IMG/VR virus record: IMGVR_UViG_3300035424_000304
Length of the DNA stretch: 20,000 nt
Direction: 5' to 3' (one strand)
Origin: an uncultured virus (IMG/VR IMGVR_UViG_3300035424_000304)
Taxonomy: Duplodnaviria > Heunggongvirae > Uroviricota > Caudoviricetes
Shown: one piece after another, positions 1 through 14,072 of the stretch
Position numbering within the stretch: position 1 is the stretch's first letter
Layout of the letters: every line of letters starts with the position of its first letter
Notes under the pieces: model-generated
Told to the model about the DNA's origin: nothing
Seen by the model: only the letters and a program-made list of their open reading frames with translations
Database searches by the model: none
Translations under genes and position numbers: made by a program

Positions 1-1993
1 ATACGTCCAGATAATTGTGTCCCTCTGCAGCAATCATATCCTTCCGCCCCTGCAGGTTATTTCCCAAGAGCACATCAAACATCTGAGCTGCCCGTTCTCC
101 ATCGCCAGGCAGCACCTTAATCAGTCTTCTGGTCTCTGGATTCATAGTCGTTAACCACATCATATCCGGGTCATTTTCACCCAACCCCTTGGAGCGGTTG
201 ACCTTGAATTTCTTTCCGGATAATTTCTTCACAACGTCCGCCTTCTCCTTCTCCGTATAGGCAAACCAGGTTTTCTCCCCATAGTTGATTTCAAACAGCG
301 GGGTTTCCGCAATATACACATACCCTTTCTCAATCAGGGTCGGGCAAAGCCGGTAGATCATTGTCAGCACAAGCGTCCGAATCTGATAACCATCCACATC
401 GGCATCCGTGCAGATAACAACTTTGTTCCAACGAAGGTTGTCCAAGTTGAACTCCCCCAGGTTCTTCGCTGCTCCCTTGCCGGCAATCTCCACTCCACAG
501 CCCAGAACTTTCATCAGATCCGTGATGATTTCACTGGCAAAGATGCGCTTATAGTCCACCTTGAGACAATTCAGAATTTTACCTCGAATTGGCATAATGC
601 CCTGAAATTCAGCATCCCGGCTCAATTTAACGCTGCCCAGAGCGGAATCACCCTCAACAATGTAGATTTCCCGGCGGGTGACATCTTTTGTCCGGCAATC
701 CACGAACTTTTGTACTCGGTTGGCAATATCAATTGTCCCGGTCAGCTTTTTCTTTATCCCTTGCCGGGTCTCCTCCGCCCGTTCCCGACTGCGCTTGTTA
801 ATCAAGACCTGAGCGGCAATCTTGGCGGCGTCGGCGGGACTCTCCGTGAAGTAGATCTGAAGCTGCTCCTTCAGGTAGTCAGCCATTGCTACTTGGACAT
901 ACCGGTTGGTGATAGATTTCTTCGTCTGGTTCTCATAGCTGGTCTGTGTGGAAAAATTGTTGCTGATAAAAATAATGCAATCCTCTATATCTTGCCATGT
1001 GACCTTAGACTCTTTCTTCTGATATTTATTGTTCTGCCTCATCCAAGCATCAATAGTGTTGACAAAGGCTGTTCGCATGGCTTTGTCGGGGCTGCCGCCG
1101 TGTTCCAGCCAGCTTGAATTGTGATAATGCTCAACCGCAGTTACCTTGTTCGAGAAGCAGAAGCAGACAGACAATTTGACTTTATACTCATCCTTATCCT
1201 CCCTGTCCTTGCCCCGGCGCTCTGTCTCCCAGAACACAGGATCAGTGAGTACCTCTTCCCCGGCAATCTCCCGGACATAATCAACTATCCCCTGCTCATA
1301 AAGGAAGTCCTGCTCCTCAAATTCACCAGAAGCGGTCTCGCTCCGGAACCGAAAGGTAATTCCGGCGTTCACCACCGCCTGCCGACGGATAGTATCCAGA
1401 TAATATTCAACAGGGATATCAATGTCCGTAAAGACGTCCAGGTCTGGAAGCCAGCGGGTACGAGTGCCTGTCTTGCGCTTATTCTTGGTCAGAGGCGTCT
1501 TTTTCAACTCCTCCCCTGTCTCTCCCACAATCTCCCCTCTCTCAAAGTGGAGCTGGTACTCAAAACCGTCCCGCCAGACAGTGACGTCCATGTAACGGGA
1601 AGCATACTGGGTGGAGCAGGAGCCAAGTCCATTCAAACCCAGGGCGTATTCGTAATTTTCTCCCTCATTATTTTTATATTTGCCACCGGCATAGAGTTCG
1701 CAGAAGACAAGCTCCCAGTTCCAACGCTGCTCCTTCTCGTTCCAATCCACGGGACACCCCCGCCCTTGATCCTCCACTTCAATACTGTGGTCGAGGAAAC
1801 GGGTTACGGTAATCAGTTGTCCATGCCCCTCTCTGGCCTCGTCAATGGAGTTGGAAAGAATCTCAAACACCGCCTGCTCGCAGCCATCTAAGCCATCAGA
1901 ACCAAAGATGACTCCGGGACGTCTGCGTACCCGATCCGCACCCTTCAATGCGGTTATCGCTTCATTACCGTATGTTGGTTTCTCCTTTCCCAT
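1..1993 (-). CDS. gyrB: Type IIA DNA topoisomerase subunit B (GyrB/ParE-like); stop codon lies just beyond the left edge
   Basis: Absent from the ORF track because it is open at the edge. Manual translation from ATG 1993 (RBS AAGGAGG) gives MGKEKPTYGNEAITALKGADRVRRRPGVIFGSDG...EILSNSIDE...EDQGRGCPVD...ELYAGGKY...GLNGLG (GHKL ATPase), IVEGDSALGS, PIRGKILN and CTDADVDG (TOPRIM), and RSKGLGEN, ending ...EGHNYLDV at position 2. GyrB versus ParE cannot be resolved by eye. Confidence 0.93.
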   Translation of the reverse strand, partial: MGKEKPTYGNEAITALKGADRVRRRPGVIFGSDGLDGCEQAVFEILSNSIDEAREGHGQLITVTRFLDHSIEVEDQGRGCPVDWNEKEQRWNWELVFCELYAGGKYKNNEGENYEYALGLNGLGSCSTQYASRYMDVTVWRDGFEYQLHFERGEIVGETGEELKKTPLTKNKRKTGTRTRWLPDLDVFTDIDIPVEYYLDTIRRQAVVNAGITFRFRSETASGEFEEQDFLYEQGIVDYVREIAGEEVLTDPVFWETERRGKDREDKDEYKVKLSVCFCFSNKVTAVEHYHNSSWLEHGGSPDKAMRTAFVNTIDAWMRQNNKYQKKESKVTWQDIEDCIIFISNNFSTQTSYENQTKKSITNRYVQVAMADYLKEQLQIYFTESPADAAKIAAQVLINKRSRERAEETRQGIKKKLTGTIDIANRVQKFVDCRTKDVTRREIYIVEGDSALGSVKLSRDAEFQGIMPIRGKILNCLKVDYKRIFASEIITDLMKVLGCGVEIAGKGAAKNLGEFNLDNLRWNKVVICTDADVDGYQIRTLVLTMIYRLCPTLIEKGYVYIAETPLFEINYGEKTWFAYTEKEKADVVKKLSGKKFKVNRSKGLGENDPDMMWLTTMNPETRRLIKVLPGDGERAAQMFDVLLGNNLQGRKDMIAAEGHNYLDV

Positions 1994-2025
1994 ACGATCC
2001 CTCCTTTGTTGTCAAATTTCTTCTC

Positions 2026-2055
2026 ATTCTATGCGCATATCTCGGAAAATATCAA
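2026..2055 (-). promoter_or_regulatory. Shared promoter motif upstream of gyrB (TTGATA-N16-CATAGAAT)
   Basis: Minus strand reads TTGATATTTTCCGAGATATGCGCATAGAAT, about 33 nt upstream of the ATG. Confidence 0.7.
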
Positions 2056-2255
2056 AAATGCAGAAAACTTCCCCTTATTTTCACGCATCTCCACATTACG
2101 TTTGTTTTCGGGCTGCTCCTTCTGAACCTATATATCTTAACAAGAACCCTCCCAATGCAAGATCTTCACACAAAACCTTCTGTTATAATGCTGACTCATT
2201 GTATCACGGCTCCCTCAAAAAGACAAATGTTTTGTAAGTTCCGTTTTATTCCCCG

Positions 2256-2285
2256 TTGATAGTTTTCATTCCTTTTTCATACAAG
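2256..2285 (+). promoter_or_regulatory. Shared promoter motif upstream of ORF 2335 (TTGATA-N16-CATACAAG)
   Basis: TTGATAGTTTTCATTCCTTTTTCATACAAG, with the same 16-nt spacing as the other copies. Confidence 0.55.
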
Positions 2286-2334
2286 AAGATAACCTATCAC
2301 GAAAAGGCTGAATATGAACAGGAGGAAAGAAACT

Positions 2335-2739
2335 ATGAAAAAAAACTTGTGTTGGATGCAGTTCAAAAATGCGATGGAGCTGCAGAATCAAGCATCCCGC
2401 GCCAATCTTCGGTTAAAAAACAGCATCATTCGGGACCTGAAAAGCGTTATCCCGGAAAAGGAAAAGACAGACAGCTGCTGCGTGGTTGTCTCCCTCTCCG
2501 AAATTCGCGCTGTGCGATCGCTGTCCCCTTCCGACTATATGGTGAAGACACAGGTGGAGCTGATTACCGAAGCTCTTATGGGTTGCCGTTCGGCCGAGAA
2601 AATGCAGGCTGTTGTCCAGGAGCTGGTTAAGACCGGAACGATTTCCAATGGGAATCGAATTCTGCCTATCAGCAGTCCTGTCTGGTCTGTTCTTAGGCGA
2701 TATTCCAGACCCGAGACCCGTCCCACCAAAATTGGGTAA
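2335..2739 (+). CDS. Hypothetical protein, 134 aa
   Basis: RBS GGAGG lies ahead of ATG 2335. The ORF is preceded by the shared promoter motif and followed by a hairpin and terminator. Confidence 0.7.
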   Translation: MKKNLCWMQFKNAMELQNQASRANLRLKNSIIRDLKSVIPEKEKTDSCCVVVSLSEIRAVRSLSPSDYMVKTQVELITEALMGCRSAEKMQAVVQELVKTGTISNGNRILPISSPVWSVLRRYSRPETRPTKIG

Positions 2740-2817
2740 GTCTCCATCCCGGATTTGACTGTCCAACGGAAATGGGTCAGAGCCGGCATGAGCTGACTTG
2801 ACCTGGACGGTTCAATG

Positions 2818-2853
2818 AAAACGCAGGATTCACCCTCAGAGTCCTGCGTTTTT
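2818..2853 (+). terminator. Intrinsic terminator (possibly bidirectional)
   Basis: AAAACGCAGGA...TCCTGCGTTTTT. Confidence 0.75.
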
Positions 2854-2927
2854 ATAACTTTCTGGCATTCTGCATAAGAAGAAGCAAGGCAACAAAAGAA
2901 AGGTTATCAAAAAAGGTTAGAAATGGC

Positions 2928-2957
2928 TTGATATTTTCTCAAGATATTGCATAGTAT
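2928..2957 (+). promoter_or_regulatory. Shared promoter motif upstream of nrdD (TTGATA-N16-CATAGTAT)
   Basis: TTGATATTTTCTCAAGATATTGCATAGTAT. A weaker second copy lies at 2851-2880 (TTTATA-N16-CATAAGAA). Confidence 0.7.
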
Positions 2958-2984
2958 AGAGTCCGATTCCACTATATGTTGTAT
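2937..2984 (+). promoter_or_regulatory. Tandem NrdR boxes
   Basis: TCTCAAGATATTGCAT (2937-2952) and CCACTATATGTTGTAT (2969-2984) match the consensus acaCwAtATaTwGtgt. They start 32 bp apart, the canonical tandem spacing, and lie directly upstream of an RNR gene. Confidence 0.8.
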
Positions 2985-3033
2985 TCGTGTGAAAAATCAA
3001 GCTTCTCTTAAATTTGAAAGGAGTAAACTTATC

Positions 3034-5358
3034 ATGACTACCACTATTAAAACCCTGCGCAAGAGAGACGGACGCGACGTCGCCTTTGACCCCAAGAAAA
3101 TCGCCAATGCCATTAACAAAGCGTTTACCGCCACTGGCTTTGCTGATATGGAGAAGACGTCGGAAGCTTTGACCCAAATGGTCATCAATGTTATTGAGGC
3201 GGAAGGCGTAGCGACTCCCGAAGTGGAGCACATCCAGGACATCGTAGAAAAAGTCCTGATGGAGGAGGACTTCACCAAAACCGCCAAAGCGTACATCCTT
3301 TACCGCAACGAGCGCAGCAAGGCCCGCGAGATGAACACCCGGCTCATGAAGACTTATGAGGAGATCACCTTCTCCGATTCCATTGAGTCTGACGTCAAGC
3401 GGGAGAATGCCAACATAAACGGCGATACTGCTATGGGATCCATGCTCAAGTATGGCAGCGAGGGGTCCAAGCAGTTCTACCAGATGTTCGTTTTGAAGCC
3501 TGAACACGCTAAGGCACACCAGCAGGGCGACATCCACATCCACGATTTGGACTTCTACACCCTGACTACGACCTGTACCCAGATCGACATCAAGAAGCTG
3601 TTCAAGGGCGGCTTCTCCACCGGGCACGGCTTCCTGCGGGAGCCCAACGATATCGCCTCCTATTCCGCCCTGGCATGTATTGCCATTCAGTCCAATCAGA
3701 ATGACCAGCACGGCGGGCAGGCCATCGTCAACTTCGACTACGGCATGGCGGACGGCGTAAAGAAGACCTTCTGCAAGTTGTACACGCAGAATCTGGCGAA
3801 GATTCTGGCAATCTGGACTCAGGACGAGGATCTGGAAGAGGACCTGAAGGCCCTGCGGAAGCAAATTGAAGCCGAAACAGGGATCTATCCCCGGCTGGGC
3901 GACTCTCAGCCCTATATAAAAGAGGAATTGTCGCGCTTGGCAGGCCGCTACAACACAGAGCTGATTGTGGATGCACAACAGATGTCTCTGCGTTATGCCG
4001 AGAAGGAAACCGACCGGGCCACCTTCCAGGCCATGGAGGCATTCATCCACAATCTGAACACAATGCACAGTCGAGCCGGCGCTCAGACCCCCTTCTCTTC
4101 CATCAACTACGGCATGGATACCTCTCCGGAAGGCCGTATGGTCATGCGGAATCTGCTGCTGACCACCGAGGATGGTCTGGGTAACGGCGAAACCCCCATC
4201 TTCCCTATTCAGATTTTCCGGGTGAAGGAGGGTGTCAATTTTAACCCCAGCGATCCCAACTATGATCTTTTCAAGCTGGCCTGCCGGTGCAGCGCAAAGC
4301 GGCTGTTCCCCAATTTCGCTTTTGTTGATGCGCCGTTCAACCTCCAGTATTATGACCCCAAGCGTCCGGAAACGGAGATCGCTTACATGGGCTGCCGCAC
4401 CCGCGTTATTGGCAATGTTAACGATCCCTCCAGGGAGCAGTGCAACCAGCGGGGCAATCTCAGTTTCACTTCCATCAATCTTCCCCGGCTCGCTATTGAG
4501 GCGAAGGGCGACCTGAACGCCTTTTATGAGGGGTTGGATAAGATGATGAATCTCTGCATCGATCAGTTGAAGGAGAGATTTGAGATCCAGTGCCGGAAGC
4601 ATGTCTACAATTACCCCTTCCTCATGGGGCAGGGCGTATGGCTGGACAGCGAGAAGCTGAACTGGAACGACGAGGTGCGTGAAGTCCTCAAGCACGGCAC
4701 TTTGTCTGTCGGCTTCATCGGCCTGGCAGAGACCTTGGTTGCCTTGACCGGCAAGCATCACGCAGAGGATTCCGATTCACAGCGCCTTGGCCTGGAGATC
4801 ATTGGACGGATGAGAGCAAGAATGGAGGAGGAATGTGCAAAAACCGGACTGAACTTCTCCTTGCTGGCAACCCCCGCCGAGGGTCTGTCTGGGCGTTTTG
4901 TCAAGATTGACAGGAAGAACTATGGCGTTATTCCCGGGGTCACTGACAAGGAGTATTACACCAACAGCTTCCATGTTCCTGTTTACTACCCCATCAGCGC
5001 CTACGACAAGATTCAGCTGGAGGCCCCCTACCACGCTCTGACAAACGCTGGACACATCAGCTACATTGAGATGGATGGCGACCCCATGAAGAATTTGGAC
5101 GCCTTCGAGAAGGTAGTCAGATGCATGAAGGAGGCCGGTATCGGCTACGGAGCCATCAACCACCCTGTCGACCGCGATCCTTGCTGCGGGTATTCCGGCG
5201 TCATTGATGACGTCTGCCCGAAGTGTGGACGGCACGAGAGTGACAGGGGTCCGAAGTTTGAGCGCATCCGCAGAATCACCGGTTACCTGGTCGGCACTAT
5301 GGACCGTTGGAACAACGCCAAAACCGCCGAAGAGTCTGACCGTGTGAAGCACGTTTAA
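3034..5358 (+). CDS. nrdD: Anaerobic (class III) ribonucleoside-triphosphate reductase, 774 aa
   Basis: N-terminal ATP cone (KRDGRDVAFDPKKIANAI), HIHDLD, YMGCRT, GNLSFTSINLPR, TPAEGL, a C-terminal metal site (DPCCG...CPKCG) and the glycyl-radical motif RITGYL. RBS GAAAGGAG precedes ATG 3034. Confidence 0.97.
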   Translation: MTTTIKTLRKRDGRDVAFDPKKIANAINKAFTATGFADMEKTSEALTQMVINVIEAEGVATPEVEHIQDIVEKVLMEEDFTKTAKAYILYRNERSKAREMNTRLMKTYEEITFSDSIESDVKRENANINGDTAMGSMLKYGSEGSKQFYQMFVLKPEHAKAHQQGDIHIHDLDFYTLTTTCTQIDIKKLFKGGFSTGHGFLREPNDIASYSALACIAIQSNQNDQHGGQAIVNFDYGMADGVKKTFCKLYTQNLAKILAIWTQDEDLEEDLKALRKQIEAETGIYPRLGDSQPYIKEELSRLAGRYNTELIVDAQQMSLRYAEKETDRATFQAMEAFIHNLNTMHSRAGAQTPFSSINYGMDTSPEGRMVMRNLLLTTEDGLGNGETPIFPIQIFRVKEGVNFNPSDPNYDLFKLACRCSAKRLFPNFAFVDAPFNLQYYDPKRPETEIAYMGCRTRVIGNVNDPSREQCNQRGNLSFTSINLPRLAIEAKGDLNAFYEGLDKMMNLCIDQLKERFEIQCRKHVYNYPFLMGQGVWLDSEKLNWNDEVREVLKHGTLSVGFIGLAETLVALTGKHHAEDSDSQRLGLEIIGRMRARMEEECAKTGLNFSLLATPAEGLSGRFVKIDRKNYGVIPGVTDKEYYTNSFHVPVYYPISAYDKIQLEAPYHALTNAGHISYIEMDGDPMKNLDAFEKVVRCMKEAGIGYGAINHPVDRDPCCGYSGVIDDVCPKCGRHESDRGPKFERIRRITGYLVGTMDRWNNAKTAEESDRVKHV

Positions 5359-11367: not shown

Positions 11368-11457
11368 TAGAAGGATTGGTGCGGAAATCCCCGGCTCATT
11401 ATCGATAGAGGCTGGCAGAGCGGGGCTAGAGAGGGCCGAAAATTTTCTCCAAATAAC

Positions 11458-11487
11458 TCGATATTTTTCGGAGGAAGCGCATAGTAT
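11458..11487 (+). promoter_or_regulatory. Shared promoter motif heading the tRNA-containing unit (TCGATA-N16-CATAGTAT)
   Basis: TCGATATTTTTCGGAGGAAGCGCATAGTAT. Confidence 0.7.
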
Positions 11488-11526
11488 ATGGATGAAAACA
11501 AACTGCCTGAAAGGAGAACTTCGCCC

Positions 11527-11715
11527 ATGAAAATTCAATCACTTTCTGTTGTCATCCCCAACGCAAGATGCATCAAGTTTGGGACAACCTCGTTTTGGAT
11601 ACAAAAACAAGATGATGGGAAGTTCCATTTTCAAATGGATAGTTCTGAGTCCCATCTGTCCAGAAAAGACTTAAAACTGCTTGTTTTAGAAATCGAGCAG
11701 GCGCTTTCTGAATGA
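11527..11715 (+). CDS. Hypothetical protein, 62 aa (possibly a chimeric remnant)
   Basis: RBS GAAAGGAG precedes ATG 11527. The protein begins MKIQSLSVVIPNARCIKFG. Confidence 0.6.
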   Translation: MKIQSLSVVIPNARCIKFGTTSFWIQKQDDGKFHFQMDSSESHLSRKDLKLLVLEIEQALSE

Positions 11716-11729
11716 ACCAGCAGCTAAAT

Positions 11730-11814
11730 GCGGGAGTGGCGGAATTGGCAGACGCACCGGATTTAAGTTCCGGCGCCATATGGTGTGAGGGTTCAAATCT
11801 CTTCTCCCGCACCA
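11730..11814 (+). tRNA. tRNA-Leu(TAA)
   Basis: Acceptor GCGGGAG/CTCCCGC-A-CCA, anticodon arm CCGGA-TTTAAGT-TCCGG, long variable arm, T loop TTCAAAT. Confidence 0.93.
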
Positions 11815-11846
11815 GCAGCTCTCGTATTCGATCTAAAAAATCATTT

Positions 11847-11937
11847 GCCAGTGTATCGTAGCGGAAACGAGGGTCAGAAATCCAGGATATCCAGTGGTAG
11901 ACCTGCGGTGCAAGTTCGACTCTTGCCACTGGCACCA
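11847..11937 (+). tRNA. Atypical tRNA-like gene with a 24-nt anticodon loop (anticodon undetermined)
   Basis: Perfect acceptor GCCAGTG/CACTGGC-A-CCA, D arm TCGT-AGCGGAA-ACGA and T arm GCAAG-TTCGACT-CTTGC. The stem GGGTC/GACCT encloses AGAAATCCAGGATATCCAGTGGTA. Confidence 0.75.
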
Positions 11938-11940
11938 AAT

Positions 11941-12016
11941 GCTCGTGTAACTCAGTTGGTAGAGTAGCGGCCTTTTAAGCCGTAAGTCGAGGGTTCGAAC
12001 CCCTCCATGGGCACCA
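11941..12016 (+). tRNA. tRNA-Lys(TTT)
   Basis: 76 nt. Acceptor GCTCGTG/CATGGGC-A-CCA, anticodon arm GCGGC-CTTTTAA-GCCGT, T arm GAGGG-TTCGAAC-CCCTC. Confidence 0.95.
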
Positions 12017-12020
12017 TTAT

Positions 12021-12108
12021 GGAGAGGTGTCCGAGCGGTCGATGGTGTCGGTCTTGAAAACCGACGAGCTGTAAGGCTCCGGGGGTTCGAATCCCTCCCT
12101 CTTCGCCA
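12021..12108 (+). tRNA. tRNA-Ser(TGA)
   Basis: Acceptor GGAGAGG/CCTCTTC-G-CCA, anticodon arm TCGGT-CTTGAAA-ACCGA, long variable arm GAGC..GCTC, G73 discriminator. Confidence 0.95.
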
Positions 12109-12109
12109 T

Positions 12110-12400
12110 TGTCTCCCCACGCTCTCGCTCAACCAAATAATCGGGACATTGCGGACATCATCATCCGCTGTTTCTGGAAGGCCCGCCCGGTGGCGTGGGT
12201 GGGGGCGTGGGAGACATACGCTGCATCCATTTGCAGGCTGGCATTTTTCGTAAGCATACGCTGCAGAGTGTGCGACCGGAATTTCCGTCTGTCGATTGGA
12301 TGCCAAAAGAGTACCCTATTTATACGGCGGGCCTGGCCCATGTGAAAAGCAAGCCAGGTGCATTTATGCAGGAGTGAAGTATAGTAGCGTAGTCCGTCGT
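12110..12400 (+). ncRNA. Candidate structured non-coding RNA(s), three domains, family unknown
   Basis: A 21-bp stem (12110-12131/12196-12216) with G-U pairs, a multi-stem junction at 12239-12305 and a multi-stem junction at 12324-12400. No ORF with an RBS is present. It begins immediately after the tRNA-Ser CCA. Confidence 0.6.
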
Positions 12401-12428
12401 TCTCTAAAAATATAAAGGAGATAATCAG

Positions 12429-12536
12429 ATGTTTTCAATCACACTCAATGGTATGGTCTATTCGTTCGAAGATGACCGTCTGATGGAAATCATGGATATG
12501 CTGGATGCTGCGGCAGACAAAGTCCGGGAAGAGTAA
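12429..12536 (+). CDS. Small acidic protein, 35 aa (not in the ORF track)
   Basis: RBS AAAGGAG, then MFSITLNGMVYSFEDDRLMEIMDMLDAAADKVREE. Confidence 0.6.
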   Translation: MFSITLNGMVYSFEDDRLMEIMDMLDAAADKVREE

Positions 12537-12548
12537 AACGAAGCTGTG

Positions 12549-12580
12549 GGGGCAGCGTAACCCGCTGCCCCTCCCCCTTT
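12549..12580 (+). terminator. GC-rich hairpin (weak terminator or processing stem) before the CAT tRNA
   Basis: GGGGCAGCG-TAACC-CGCTGCCCC followed by a pyrimidine run lacking a good U tract. Confidence 0.4.
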
Positions 12581-12590
12581 CCCAGAATCT

Positions 12591-12666
12591 GCTCCCTTAG
12601 CTCAGTTGGTAGAGCGGCTGCCTCATAAGCGGTTGGTCCTGGGTTCGATTCCCCGAGGGAGTACCA
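12591..12666 (+). tRNA. tRNA with CAT anticodon (elongator Met or Ile2)
   Basis: 76 nt. Acceptor GCTCCCT/AGGGAGT-A-CCA, anticodon arm GCTGC-CTCATAA-GCGGT. It lacks initiator features and has C4-G69 and C5-G68 as in Ile2. Confidence 0.9.
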
Positions 12667-12694
12667 AGAAATCAACAAAAACGAGGTATTTAGC

Positions 12695-13159
12695 ATGTTT
12701 TCAAGCAACCAAATTCTTGACATTTCCTGTGAGCAAAAAGACCTGAGCCGGGTCATAAAGTTTGCCGTGGGACTGGATGACGAAGATTTGTTTATCCGGC
12801 ACGATGGTCGTCTGAAAATGGCTTTTTCCGAACCAATCCCCGGCGTGTACGCTATTGGAAGAGGTTCGTTCCCTGGCTTCTCTGGCAGTTCTGTGCGGGG
12901 ACATTCGGCGGGAAAGGGTTGGGTGGATTACCCATTTGACTACGATCCTGACATCGTCGCAGGTATTATCAACCAGTGGATTCAAAAGCAGCCTGAGCCA
13001 AAACATACAGGAACCGATGGATCGGAGCATCTGGGGGTACGGGTGAGGTGCCTGGAGTCCATGGGCGACGACCTGCCGCACAGCTATGATTTACCAAATT
13101 GGGACTGGTTCAGCTGCATTCTGCTGTTTACCCCAATTCATATGGCATATCACAAGTAA
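12695..13159 (+). CDS. Hypothetical protein, 154 aa
   Basis: RBS GAGGT. Co-oriented ORF filling the gap between the tRNA and the coaB-like gene. Confidence 0.75.
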   Translation: MFSSNQILDISCEQKDLSRVIKFAVGLDDEDLFIRHDGRLKMAFSEPIPGVYAIGRGSFPGFSGSSVRGHSAGKGWVDYPFDYDPDIVAGIINQWIQKQPEPKHTGTDGSEHLGVRVRCLESMGDDLPHSYDLPNWDWFSCILLFTPIHMAYHK

Positions 13160-13183
13160 CCGATAAAAACGGAGGCGTAAAAT

Positions 13184-13945
13184 ATGAAGAAAAGGATTAT
13201 TATCACATCTGGTCCCACAAACGAGCAAATCGATGCAGTGATGAAAATCACGAACATGTCGACCGGAGCTCTGGGAAGCACGATAGCGGAGACCTTTCTG
13301 CGGGAGCGGAGTAAAAACATCGAAAAAGTCTACTACCTCTCCCCCAAACTCGCCCTGAAACCCCGCCTGACTTCTCCTCTGTTGGATTACATCACAGTCG
13401 AATCCACGCAGGATTTGCTGGACGAACTGACGCACCTTCTGACCACAGAGCGCATCGATGCTGTTGTGCATTCCGCCGCCGTGGGAGATTACAAGGCCAG
13501 CTACACTATCCGGGCGGAAGACCTCATTGATGAAATCATCCGGAAACAGGCGGAGGCCGGGGGTGTACTGGGGTACGACGAGCTTATGGAAATCTTCGAC
13601 AGTCCCGAGGCCGTGCAGAATGACAGTACAAAAATCTCCTCTTATGAGCCCCACCTGATGACAATGCTAACCTTGACCCCAAAGGTTATCAGCAGTATCA
13701 AGAAGCTCTCCCCCAGTACTACCCTGGTGGGTTTTAAACTTCTGGAGGGCATAGCGAGGGACGAACTTCTTAACGTCGCCTCCAGGCTACGTGAGAAGAA
13801 CCAGGCAGATTACATCATTGCTAATGACCTTTCCAAAATTGGCAACGGAAAACACTGGGCGATGGTTGTGGGAGCGTCTGGGGTCGAGACGGAGTGTGAG
13901 ACAAAGCAGGAAATTGCCGATGCAATCCTGGCCCGGATTTTCTGA
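13184..13945 (+). CDS. coaB: Phosphopantothenate-cysteine ligase-like protein (stand-alone CoaB/DFP C-terminal domain), 253 aa
   Basis: IIITSGPTNEQIDAVMKITNMSTGALG, VVHSAAVGDY, KISS, TPKVI, LVGFKL and IIANDL. RBS GGAGG. Confidence 0.9.
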   Translation: MKKRIIITSGPTNEQIDAVMKITNMSTGALGSTIAETFLRERSKNIEKVYYLSPKLALKPRLTSPLLDYITVESTQDLLDELTHLLTTERIDAVVHSAAVGDYKASYTIRAEDLIDEIIRKQAEAGGVLGYDELMEIFDSPEAVQNDSTKISSYEPHLMTMLTLTPKVISSIKKLSPSTTLVGFKLLEGIARDELLNVASRLREKNQADYIIANDLSKIGNGKHWAMVVGASGVETECETKQEIADAILARIF

Positions 13946-13986: not shown

Positions 13987-14072
13987 GCCTTGGTAGCTCA
14001 GTAGGTAGAGCGCCGTAGGGAGTTGATCGCCCCTTCGGTATGTCGCCGGTTCGAGTCCGGCCCAGGGCACAA
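13987..14072 (+). tRNA. Atypical tRNA-like gene with an extended anticodon arm (+10 nt); ends ACAA rather than ACCA
   Basis: Acceptor GCCTTGG/CCAGGGC-A, D arm GCTC-AGTAGGTA-GAGC and T arm GCCGG-TTCGAGT-CCGGC. The anticodon arm is GCCGTAGGG-AGTTGATCGC-CCCTTCGGT. Confidence 0.75.

Follow-up and report, generated by a model that had tools for sequence, protein, structure and literature searches.

The stretch of DNA considered here, 20,000 nucleotides (nt) of an uncultured virus assigned to the Caudoviricetes (IMG/VR record IMGVR_UViG_3300035424_000304), is referred to at its full length as the window. It carries, in an array of transfer RNA (tRNA) genes, a 91-nt tRNA-like gene in which the acceptor, D and T arms are intact and the usual anticodon arm is missing. 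This gene is best explained as a rearranged copy of a class II tRNA-Leu, the class with a long variable arm, that appears to have lost its anticodon stem. As far as can be judged from the letters of the gene and of its relatives, it is very probably both Leu-derived and non-decoding.

Cloverleaf and anticodon region

A preliminary description, made from the sequence alone, had noticed an intact acceptor stem (7/7 pairs), D stem (4/4), T arm (5/5, with a TTCGACT loop) and an encoded ACCA, and direct reading bears this out (Table 1). All of the bases which underlie the L-shape (U8, A14, G18, G19, A21, T54, T55, C56, A58 and the pair G53-C61) are present. The helix GGGTC/GACCT indeed follows the D stem with no unpaired base between them, as had been claimed, with the nuance that its outer pair is a G.T wobble. 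The 24 nt enclosed by this helix do contain ATCCAG twice, at 11880-11885 and 11889-11894, and a repeated 6-mer arises in 2.3% of shuffled loops. The 24 nt are, however, not the single enlarged anticodon loop for which they had been taken, but a composite, made up of what remains of the anticodon loop of Leu, two copies of the 3' anticodon-stem strand and the beginning of the long variable arm. The loop folds on itself only weakly (3+2 pairs), and the whole arm reaches -6.7 kcal/mol.

The likeness to a tRNA exceeds chance: in a 4-kb search with laxer filters the Rfam tRNA model (RF00005) recognized the gene with 38.7 bits (E 8e-6) against a gathering cut-off of 29. The alignment runs over model positions 1-71 and includes the acceptor, D and T arms, but the place of the canonical 17-nt anticodon arm, with its 7-nt loop, U33 and purine 37, is taken by 33 nt with a loop of 24 nt. 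When the whole window was searched with Rfam at gathering thresholds five tRNAs were reported and this gene was not among them; ARAGORN at default settings likewise called five tRNAs in the window and missed it. The fold itself has a point against it, as the minimum free energy (MFE) structure of ViennaRNA (-29.4 kcal/mol) is not the cloverleaf (-26.1 kcal/mol); for the D, "anticodon" and T helices the probability lies below 10%. This misfit weighs little, because the cloverleaves of the neighbouring true tRNA-Leu and tRNA-Met are missed by ViennaRNA in the same way.

Two other structural candidates were set aside. A match to YrlA (Y RNA-like) at 11902-11969 is spurious, reaching 25.1 bits against a cut-off of 69 and covering the T arm together with the D arm of the next tRNA. 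A possible switch between CCAGTGG in the loop and CCACTGG at the junction of T stem and acceptor, found in 0.6% of shuffles, is more readily seen as a by-product of Leu ancestry and is unused in the MFE fold.

Probable descent from tRNA-Leu

The relatives of the gene were sought with a covariance model, R1, which was built on the gene with the cloverleaf of the preliminary description and whose self-score of 124 bits is given by construction. Matches to R1 occur in 132 of the 151 genomes belonging to the order of G001, a metagenome-assembled genome (MAG). The ten best of them score 42.5-47 bits and are all 87 nt long, and the four that were checked, from the uncultured Clostridia MAGs G023, G040, G155 and G060, are tRNA-Leu(CAA) by ARAGORN. 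In global alignment tRNA-Leu(CAA) of Clostridia gives a z-score of 13.7, and tRNA-Leu(TAG) of the metagenomic contig L082, which was not scored with R1, gives 15.1. Lower values were obtained for the best matches of class I, Thr(CGT) (R1 41.1 bits, z 6.3), Gly(TCC) (36.7 bits, z 9.4) and Pro(GGG) (35.9 bits, z 6.9).

The most specific likeness lies at 11887-11909. Compared without gaps from the 3' end, this block has 15-17 of its 23 positions in common with the four tRNA-Leu(CAA) genes of Clostridia and only 5-8 with seven other tRNAs. Its counterpart in tRNA-Leu takes in the last part of the anticodon loop, the anticodon stem's 3' strand TCCAG and the 15-nt variable arm. The whole 3' half, from the second ATCCAG to CCA, is collinear with tRNA-Leu(CAA) of Clostridia; its last 28 nt (T arm, acceptor strand and ACCA) do not discriminate, since they agree at 13-23 of 28 positions over all tRNAs and at 20-23 for Leu, Thr, Gly and Pro. 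The length of 91 nt is explained by the long-arm class (87 nt in bacteria) and not by 17 nt added to a 74-nt tRNA. Besides the length class and the 23-nt block, A73 and the encoded CCA are shared with tRNA-Leu(CAA), from which the acceptor and T stems are set apart by three pair changes, all of them fully compensated. The tertiary pairs U8-A14, G18-U55 and G19-C56 of class II tRNA-Leu are likewise present, with G.U rather than A-U as the 15-48 pair.

What distinguishes the gene from tRNA-Leu(CAA) is the absence of an anticodon stem and of a Leu anticodon in a 7-nt loop, the lost hairpin of the long variable arm and about 9 extra nt, which repeat ATCCAG. The gene contains TCCAG twice and nowhere its complement, which would be the 5' strand of the old anticodon stem. 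The old variable-arm hairpin is unable to form, as GGT..ACC leaves a loop of 2 nt, and part of it pairs with GGGTC instead. A new helix, GGGTC/GACCT, closes what is left into a single loop of 24 nt. The D arm differs too, being of class I type (4-bp stem, 7-nt loop) in contrast to the 3-bp stem and 11-nt loop of tRNA-Leu(CAA) of Clostridia.

Two facts limit the claim of descent from tRNA-Leu: it is carried mainly by the 23 nt and the overall length, and the middle part by itself reaches a z-score of only 2.6 in gapped alignment. A hybrid origin was weighed too, in which two tRNA genes of the array would have recombined at ATCCAG, a class I-type 5' part resembling Gly(UCC) being joined to a Leu 3' part. 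It would account for a D arm that is class I-like and unlike Leu, R1 aligns UCAGA..UCCA of tRNA-Gly(TCC) from Clostridia to 11874-11884, and ATCCAG flanks the presumed joint on both sides; contigs from RNA libraries that break or change their flank at 11935-11937 also speak for swapping of tRNA modules. Yet the middle part yields a z-score of only 0.7 against Gly, a clean class I anticodon arm can be read in no register, and the two parents would have to share an identical 7-bp acceptor stem, all of which makes the hybrid improbable. It concerns the origin alone and would be compatible with either of the fates discussed below for the rearranged tRNA-Leu.

Loss of decoding

There are eight single excisions which would leave a 7-nt loop, and none of them gives U33 together with a purine at position 37; after removal of any 17 nt a G stands at position 33 and a T at position 37. 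A tiny intron and a Trp identity, both offered by the preliminary description, are thereby rejected, and the RNA would be unable to decode. The TCCA that had suggested Trp belongs to TCCAG, the 3' strand of the tRNA-Leu anticodon stem, and the discriminator base is A73, while in bacteria the Trp discriminator is G73. ARAGORN with introns allowed, which the same description had named as a check, does not call the gene at the default threshold. Lowering the threshold to 90% makes it return a forced Trp(cca), whose 3-nt "intron" is accompanied by a long variable arm and by an anticodon stem that contains two mismatches.

An intron-bearing tRNA, in which splicing out part of the 24 nt would yield a tRNA able to decode (Trp-CCA or Leu), has some precedent. 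The Lak megaphage preprint (10.1101/356790) reports, in the portion referred to here, phage tRNAs with inserted sequences and suggests that they are common in large phages, and the huge phages G003 and G005 carry inserts of 85-105 nt in anticodon loops that begin in a normal-looking way. The Trp(cca) model at lowered threshold may be counted on the same side, but it needs the mismatches and the long variable arm just mentioned. With the failed excisions, the missing complement of TCCAG that a Leu anticodon stem would need, the homology of the TCCAG block to a stem strand rather than to an anticodon, and the discriminator A73, splicing to a decoding tRNA is considered very improbable. From the alternatives listed in the preliminary description (a mimic acting as nuclease decoy, T-box/RelA modulator or aminoacyl donor, an intron or duplication with Trp identity, a pseudogene) the non-decoding character and the short repeat are thus retained, and the intron and Trp are given up.

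Authenticity and distribution

The same 91 nt were found in three metagenome contigs (L037, L074 and L086), one of which, L037, comes from a strain that has 127 differences from the window in 6 kb, almost all of which fall at 13060-13600. Contigs from RNA libraries also cover the gene with no indel, namely X15 record 1 (11500-11937, 0 differences), X17 record 11 (11739-11981) and X18 record 17 (11590-11927). This evidence consists of assembled Logan contigs (X15, X17, X18 and X20), which are blind to transcription, RNA ends, levels and rare spliced forms. No joints or indels over the gene are listed in the contigs of these four runs, and in X20 there is almost no depth across 11773-11954. A 3.2-kb stretch was recovered in 20 rows of public runs, among them 9 rows (8 studies) that carry no mark as a possible source, and the gene is also present in contigs of several mouse-gut runs. 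Identical copies in several contigs and runs exclude the assembly error that had been named at first, and an artefact of assembly or sequencing can be regarded as practically negligible.

Some of these contigs differ from the window around the gene. X15 record 1 diverges directly after the CCA of the tRNA-like gene at 11937, and in X15 record 4 and X18 record 20, which are from RNA-library runs of two studies, tRNA-Lys and the first part of tRNA-Ser are matched exactly and the upstream flank is different. Judged by these joints, the Lys-Ser pair seems to be common to another genome, and tRNA modules seem to be swapped at 11935-11937. A patch of about 540 bp at 13060-13600 holds about 100 of the 127 differences between L037 and the window and spans the end of a 154-amino-acid open reading frame (ORF) and the first half of a CoaB-like gene; such divergence suggests that it was recombined in from a more distant relative.

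Predicted processing and possible charging

The gene would be co-transcribed with the Leu-Lys-Ser array. By general tRNA biology, RNase P cuts at its own 5' end and at the 5' end of tRNA-Lys would release it, and the 3-nt trailer would be trimmed back to CCA. Release by the usual tRNA-end enzymes is expected because the acceptor stem, T arm, D arm, U8, A14, G18, G19, U55 and C56 are intact. The product would be a CCA-ended RNA which reads no codon.

Such an RNA may still be chargeable with leucine, because bacterial leucyl-tRNA synthetase (LeuRS) needs A73 and the tertiary core and not the anticodon arm. In the part of PMC2377443 drawn on here the identity set of LeuRS is given as A73 with the core U8-A14, G18-U55 and G19-C56, and removal of the entire anticodon stem-loop lowered the affinity only 2.5-fold. 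Against efficient charging stand the G15 opposite U48, where the same part of PMC2377443 lists A15-U48 for Escherichia coli, and the lost variable-arm hairpin, with which the variable-arm orientation required by Aquifex LeuRS has probably been lost.

Leftover or mimic

The check for homologues by BLAST or Infernal that the preliminary description had put forward returned letter-identical copies only: searches of viral contigs, phages in GenBank, plasmids and two related MAGs, as well as the metagenome scan, turned up no diverged homologue. In the viral contigs the exact pattern of T arm and acceptor had 0 matches, as had a 20-nt pattern of the loop, and a pattern of acceptor and GTTCGA with a free middle gave 4 loci, none of them similar in the middle. 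This last pattern matched 90 stretches of the metagenome contigs, three being the letter-identical gene and the others ordinary tRNAs (mostly CAT, several Leu), whose acceptor is shared by the design of the pattern. With blastn against phages a 4-kb query matched in the neighbouring tRNAs only and the 91-nt query gave one partial match of 49 nt; against plasmids only the chromosomal-type tRNA array of C. difficile records was matched. In the MAGs G001 and G002 the neighbouring tRNAs were matched and the tRNA-like gene was not, and no copy of it lies at the loci of relatives of the 154-amino-acid ORF (IMG/VR relatives at 25-35% identity, MAG relatives at 54% and 33%).

Since no diverged homologue was found, the 24 nt are nearly structureless and the region looks like debris (a repeat and indels in comparison with Leu), the gene can be taken for an evolutionary leftover, that is a pseudo-tRNA riding in the array without a selected role. 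This reading comes near to an even chance without reaching it, and it is favoured only slightly over reuse of the gene as a non-decoding mimic. The latter, a tentative but real possibility, would be a Leu-derived, L-shaped and CCA-ended RNA kept by selection. Its possible roles are those of a leucylated binder of LeuRS or EF-Tu, or of a sponge for a tRNA-cutting defence nuclease of the host, one whose target is either the body of a tRNA or its anticodon/variable region.

Several findings weigh against a leftover, and most of them would suit a mimic. All 21 pairs of the four helices (21/21) and all core tertiary bases are intact beside several lesions which have heavily altered the anticodon and variable region, and the D arm is clean (4 bp, 7-nt loop) though strongly unlike the D arms of Leu. 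When the 39 nt that separate the D arm from the T arm were shuffled 20,000 times, a 5/5 helix in the same register arose in 0.8% of shuffles and in 4% across six registers, so that the new helix at the position of the anticodon stem is expected in 0.8-4% of them. The CCA is encoded and the gene is tightly packed in the array. In the same cluster another tRNA-like gene (13987-14070) has an over-long anticodon arm, and similar oddities (L118, L119 and L121) are known from distantly related huge phages which share the 154-amino-acid protein at 25-35% identity. A mimic would also have the LeuRS identity set of A73 and core, with an anticodon arm that is dispensable for charging according to the same portion of PMC2377443. 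Published phage tRNAs evade or counter tRNA-cutting defences, whose nucleases remove anticodon arms or cut variable loops, as far as the parts of PMC11555353, PMC12445682 and PMC13096335 taken into account describe them, and a regulatory pseudo-tRNA exists in Bacillus cereus according to the consulted section of PMC3399842.

A mimic in its turn has to contend with the fact that only letter-identical copies are at hand, so there is no support from covariation or conservation. No partner protein or target was found, and, with regard to an antisense role, nothing complementary to the loop stands in the rest of the window. If the gene were a decoy for an anticodon nuclease, one would expect the anticodon loop of the target to be retained, which is not so here, and the MFE fold is not the cloverleaf. 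The compensated acceptor and T-stem pairs leave the choice between leftover and mimic undecided, because they may predate the damage. The boldest form of selection, a Leu-tRNA body without an anticodon arm kept by the phage, perhaps leucylated, acting as nuclease bait or LeuRS partner and belonging to a wider undescribed class of look-alikes (13987-14070, L118, L119, L121), is thought unlikely.

If the gene is a leftover, it matters mainly for annotation, as a class II tRNA decaying into a class I look-alike with a giant anticodon loop; searching such loops for anticodons (here "Trp") is misleading. If it is selected, it would be a natural phage case of a tRNA body without decoding, bearing on the answers of phages to tRNA-targeting defences and on the purpose of many odd tRNAs of huge phages. 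The element occurs commonly in samples of mouse gut, which could put it within reach of experiments.

Genomic context

The features of the gene and of its surroundings are collected in Table 1. In 11400-12700 a consensus scan found no promoter-like site on the plus strand; both sites that it found are on the minus strand.

Table 1. Features of the tRNA-like gene and of the tRNA cluster in the window
Feature	Position	Strand	Remarks
Whole tRNA-like gene	11847..11937	+	91 nt, encoded ACCA at 3' end; RF00005 38.7 bits over 11847-11934
Acceptor stem, 5' strand GCCAGTG	11847..11853	+	Partner 11927-11933; 7/7 Watson-Crick; ViennaRNA ensemble pair probabilities 0.95-1.0
Positions 8-9, TA	Between acceptor 5' strand and D arm	+	Direct reading
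D arm TCGT-AGCGGAA-ACGA	11856..11870	+	4-bp stem, 4/4; 7-nt loop; A14, G18, G19, A21 present (Rfam alignment)
GGGTC, 5' strand of helix at anticodon-stem site	11871..11875	+	Partner GACCT 11900-11904; 4 Watson-Crick pairs and 1 G.T
Enclosed loop AGAAATCCAGGATATCCAGTGGTA	11876..11899	+	24 nt: TCAGAAA-like anticodon-loop remnant, ATCCAG twice, then TGGTA
Block collinear with 3' anticodon-stem strand and long variable arm of tRNA-Leu(CAA)	11887..11909	+	15-17/23 ungapped; longest exact run 12 nt
Unpaired GCGGT	Between GACCT and T arm	+	5 nt; direct reading
T arm GCAAG-TTCGACT-CTTGC	11910..11926	+	Stem 5/5; T54, T55, C56, A58, G53-C61 (Rfam alignment)
Acceptor 3' strand CACTGGC, discriminator A73, encoded CCA	11927..11937	+	Direct reading
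tRNA-Leu(TAA)	11730-11814	+	ARAGORN, Rfam; tRNA-like gene begins 32 nt downstream
tRNA-Lys(TTT)	11941-12016	+	ARAGORN, Rfam; 3 nt downstream of tRNA-like gene
tRNA-Ser(TGA)	12021-12108	+	ARAGORN, Rfam
Array Leu - tRNA-like - Lys - Ser	11730..12108	+	
Terminator-like hairpin	12151-12168		After tRNA-Ser(TGA)
tRNA-Met(CAT)	12591-12666		
CoaB-like gene (phosphopantothenate-cysteine ligase)	13184-13945	+	Pfam DFP 1.2e-26; inside tRNA cluster
Second odd tRNA	13987-14070	+	After CoaB-like gene; Rfam 48.5 bits, 20 nt where 11 belong; ARAGORN "tRNA-???", 4-base anticodon (tgat)

The window encodes a GyrB-like protein, an NAD-dependent ligase, a serine recombinase, an N6 methylase, the CoaB-like protein and a DUF3848/DUF3849 protein; most of its other ORFs have no family match. 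No close relatives of the CoaB-like and ligase proteins were found in the viral contigs; a few phage records and plasmids carry homologues of the CoaB-like protein with 24-35% identity. The 154-amino-acid ORF adjoining the cluster has 16 homologues at 47-99% identity. IMG/VR contigs of 10-673 kb, including five of 138-673 kb, encode homologues at 25-35% identity, and two MAG loci carry homologues at 54% (a Clostridia MAG) and 33% identity. We infer that the element is a large phage or a phage-like mobile element of gut Clostridia; the label "phage" stays at this strength because no structural phage gene was found in the window.

Other unusual tRNAs and known systems

In the second odd tRNA of the cluster the 10-nt loop is closed by an 8-pair anticodon stem that contains one T.T mismatch. 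This gene encodes no CCA, and its 5' and 3' ends resemble the Thr and Phe tRNAs of Clostridia. In L037 it differs by one T-stem pair, G-C being replaced by G.T (14046 C>T). Among the look-alikes from huge phages sharing the 154-amino-acid protein, L119 has a segment of 27 nt and L118 one of 57 nt in place of the anticodon arm, and L121 has a 9-nt loop. The inserts of 85-105 nt in the anticodon loops of other huge-phage tRNAs (L115 and L117 in G005, L116 in G003) contain, in L116 and L117, tRNA-like pieces with a GTTCGAA-type T arm, which gives them the look of nested tRNAs.

Further peculiar tRNA genes were met during the searches. A 159-kb viral contig (L100; 8428-8514 and 9388-9479) carries a 92-nt tRNA-Glu(TTC) with a long variable arm and an 87-nt gene that scores 46.5 bits with the tRNA-Sec model (cut-off 47), yet has a UGA (Ser) anticodon by reading. 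The 143-kb metagenome contig L082 (709-781, 1270-1549, 2896-2971) holds a transfer-messenger RNA, a tRNA with a CTA anticodon (which may be an amber suppressor) and a "tRNA-Leu(caa)" of 76 nt that lacks the long arm; the tRNA-Leu(TAG) adjoining them shares the acceptor and nearly the T arm with the tRNA-like gene. In the C. difficile record NZ_CP149745.1, filed as a 150-kb plasmid, 43 tRNA genes stand within about 3.8 kb (L095, 36715-43507; locus 391-4230), two of them CTA-anticodon tRNAs called Pyl by ARAGORN, and the array resembles a duplicated one of chromosomal type.

With regard to known systems, the tRNA cluster of phage T4 includes small stable tRNA-like RNAs (species 1 and 2, RNA C and D) which do not decode and are presumably co-processed. 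Like the RNA that the present gene would give, they are encoded among phage tRNA genes.

The "enigmatic introns" in megaphage tRNAs described in the consulted portion of the Lak preprint (10.1101/356790), identical across cohorts and suggested to be common in large phages, offer a nearer comparison. Those over-long pseudo tRNAs share with the present gene the setting in big gut-phage tRNA sets, the excess length, the sequence identity across cohorts and the fact that they are missed or left unclassified by bacterial tRNA finders. They differ in that, as far as that portion goes, the inserts of Lak, like those of G003 and G005, sit in an otherwise normal anticodon loop and are removable on paper, whereas removal restores nothing in the tRNA-like gene. 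A narrow literature search met no Leu-derived tRNA-like gene with a fused anticodon and variable loop, though the insert sequences in Lak Table S6 might include similar cases.

In Bacillus cereus the pseudo-tRNA called tRNA-Other has been recruited as a regulatory RNA, according to the part of PMC3399842 considered here. Like the present gene it was predicted to be a tRNA not used in translation, and it shows that inactivated tRNAs can gain other roles; unlike it, tRNA-Other lies on the chromosome, borders a genomic island and exerts its effect as part of a longer transcript. Taken together with these systems, the tRNA-like gene is best filed with a known kind, the pseudo-tRNA or tRNA-like gene in a phage tRNA array.

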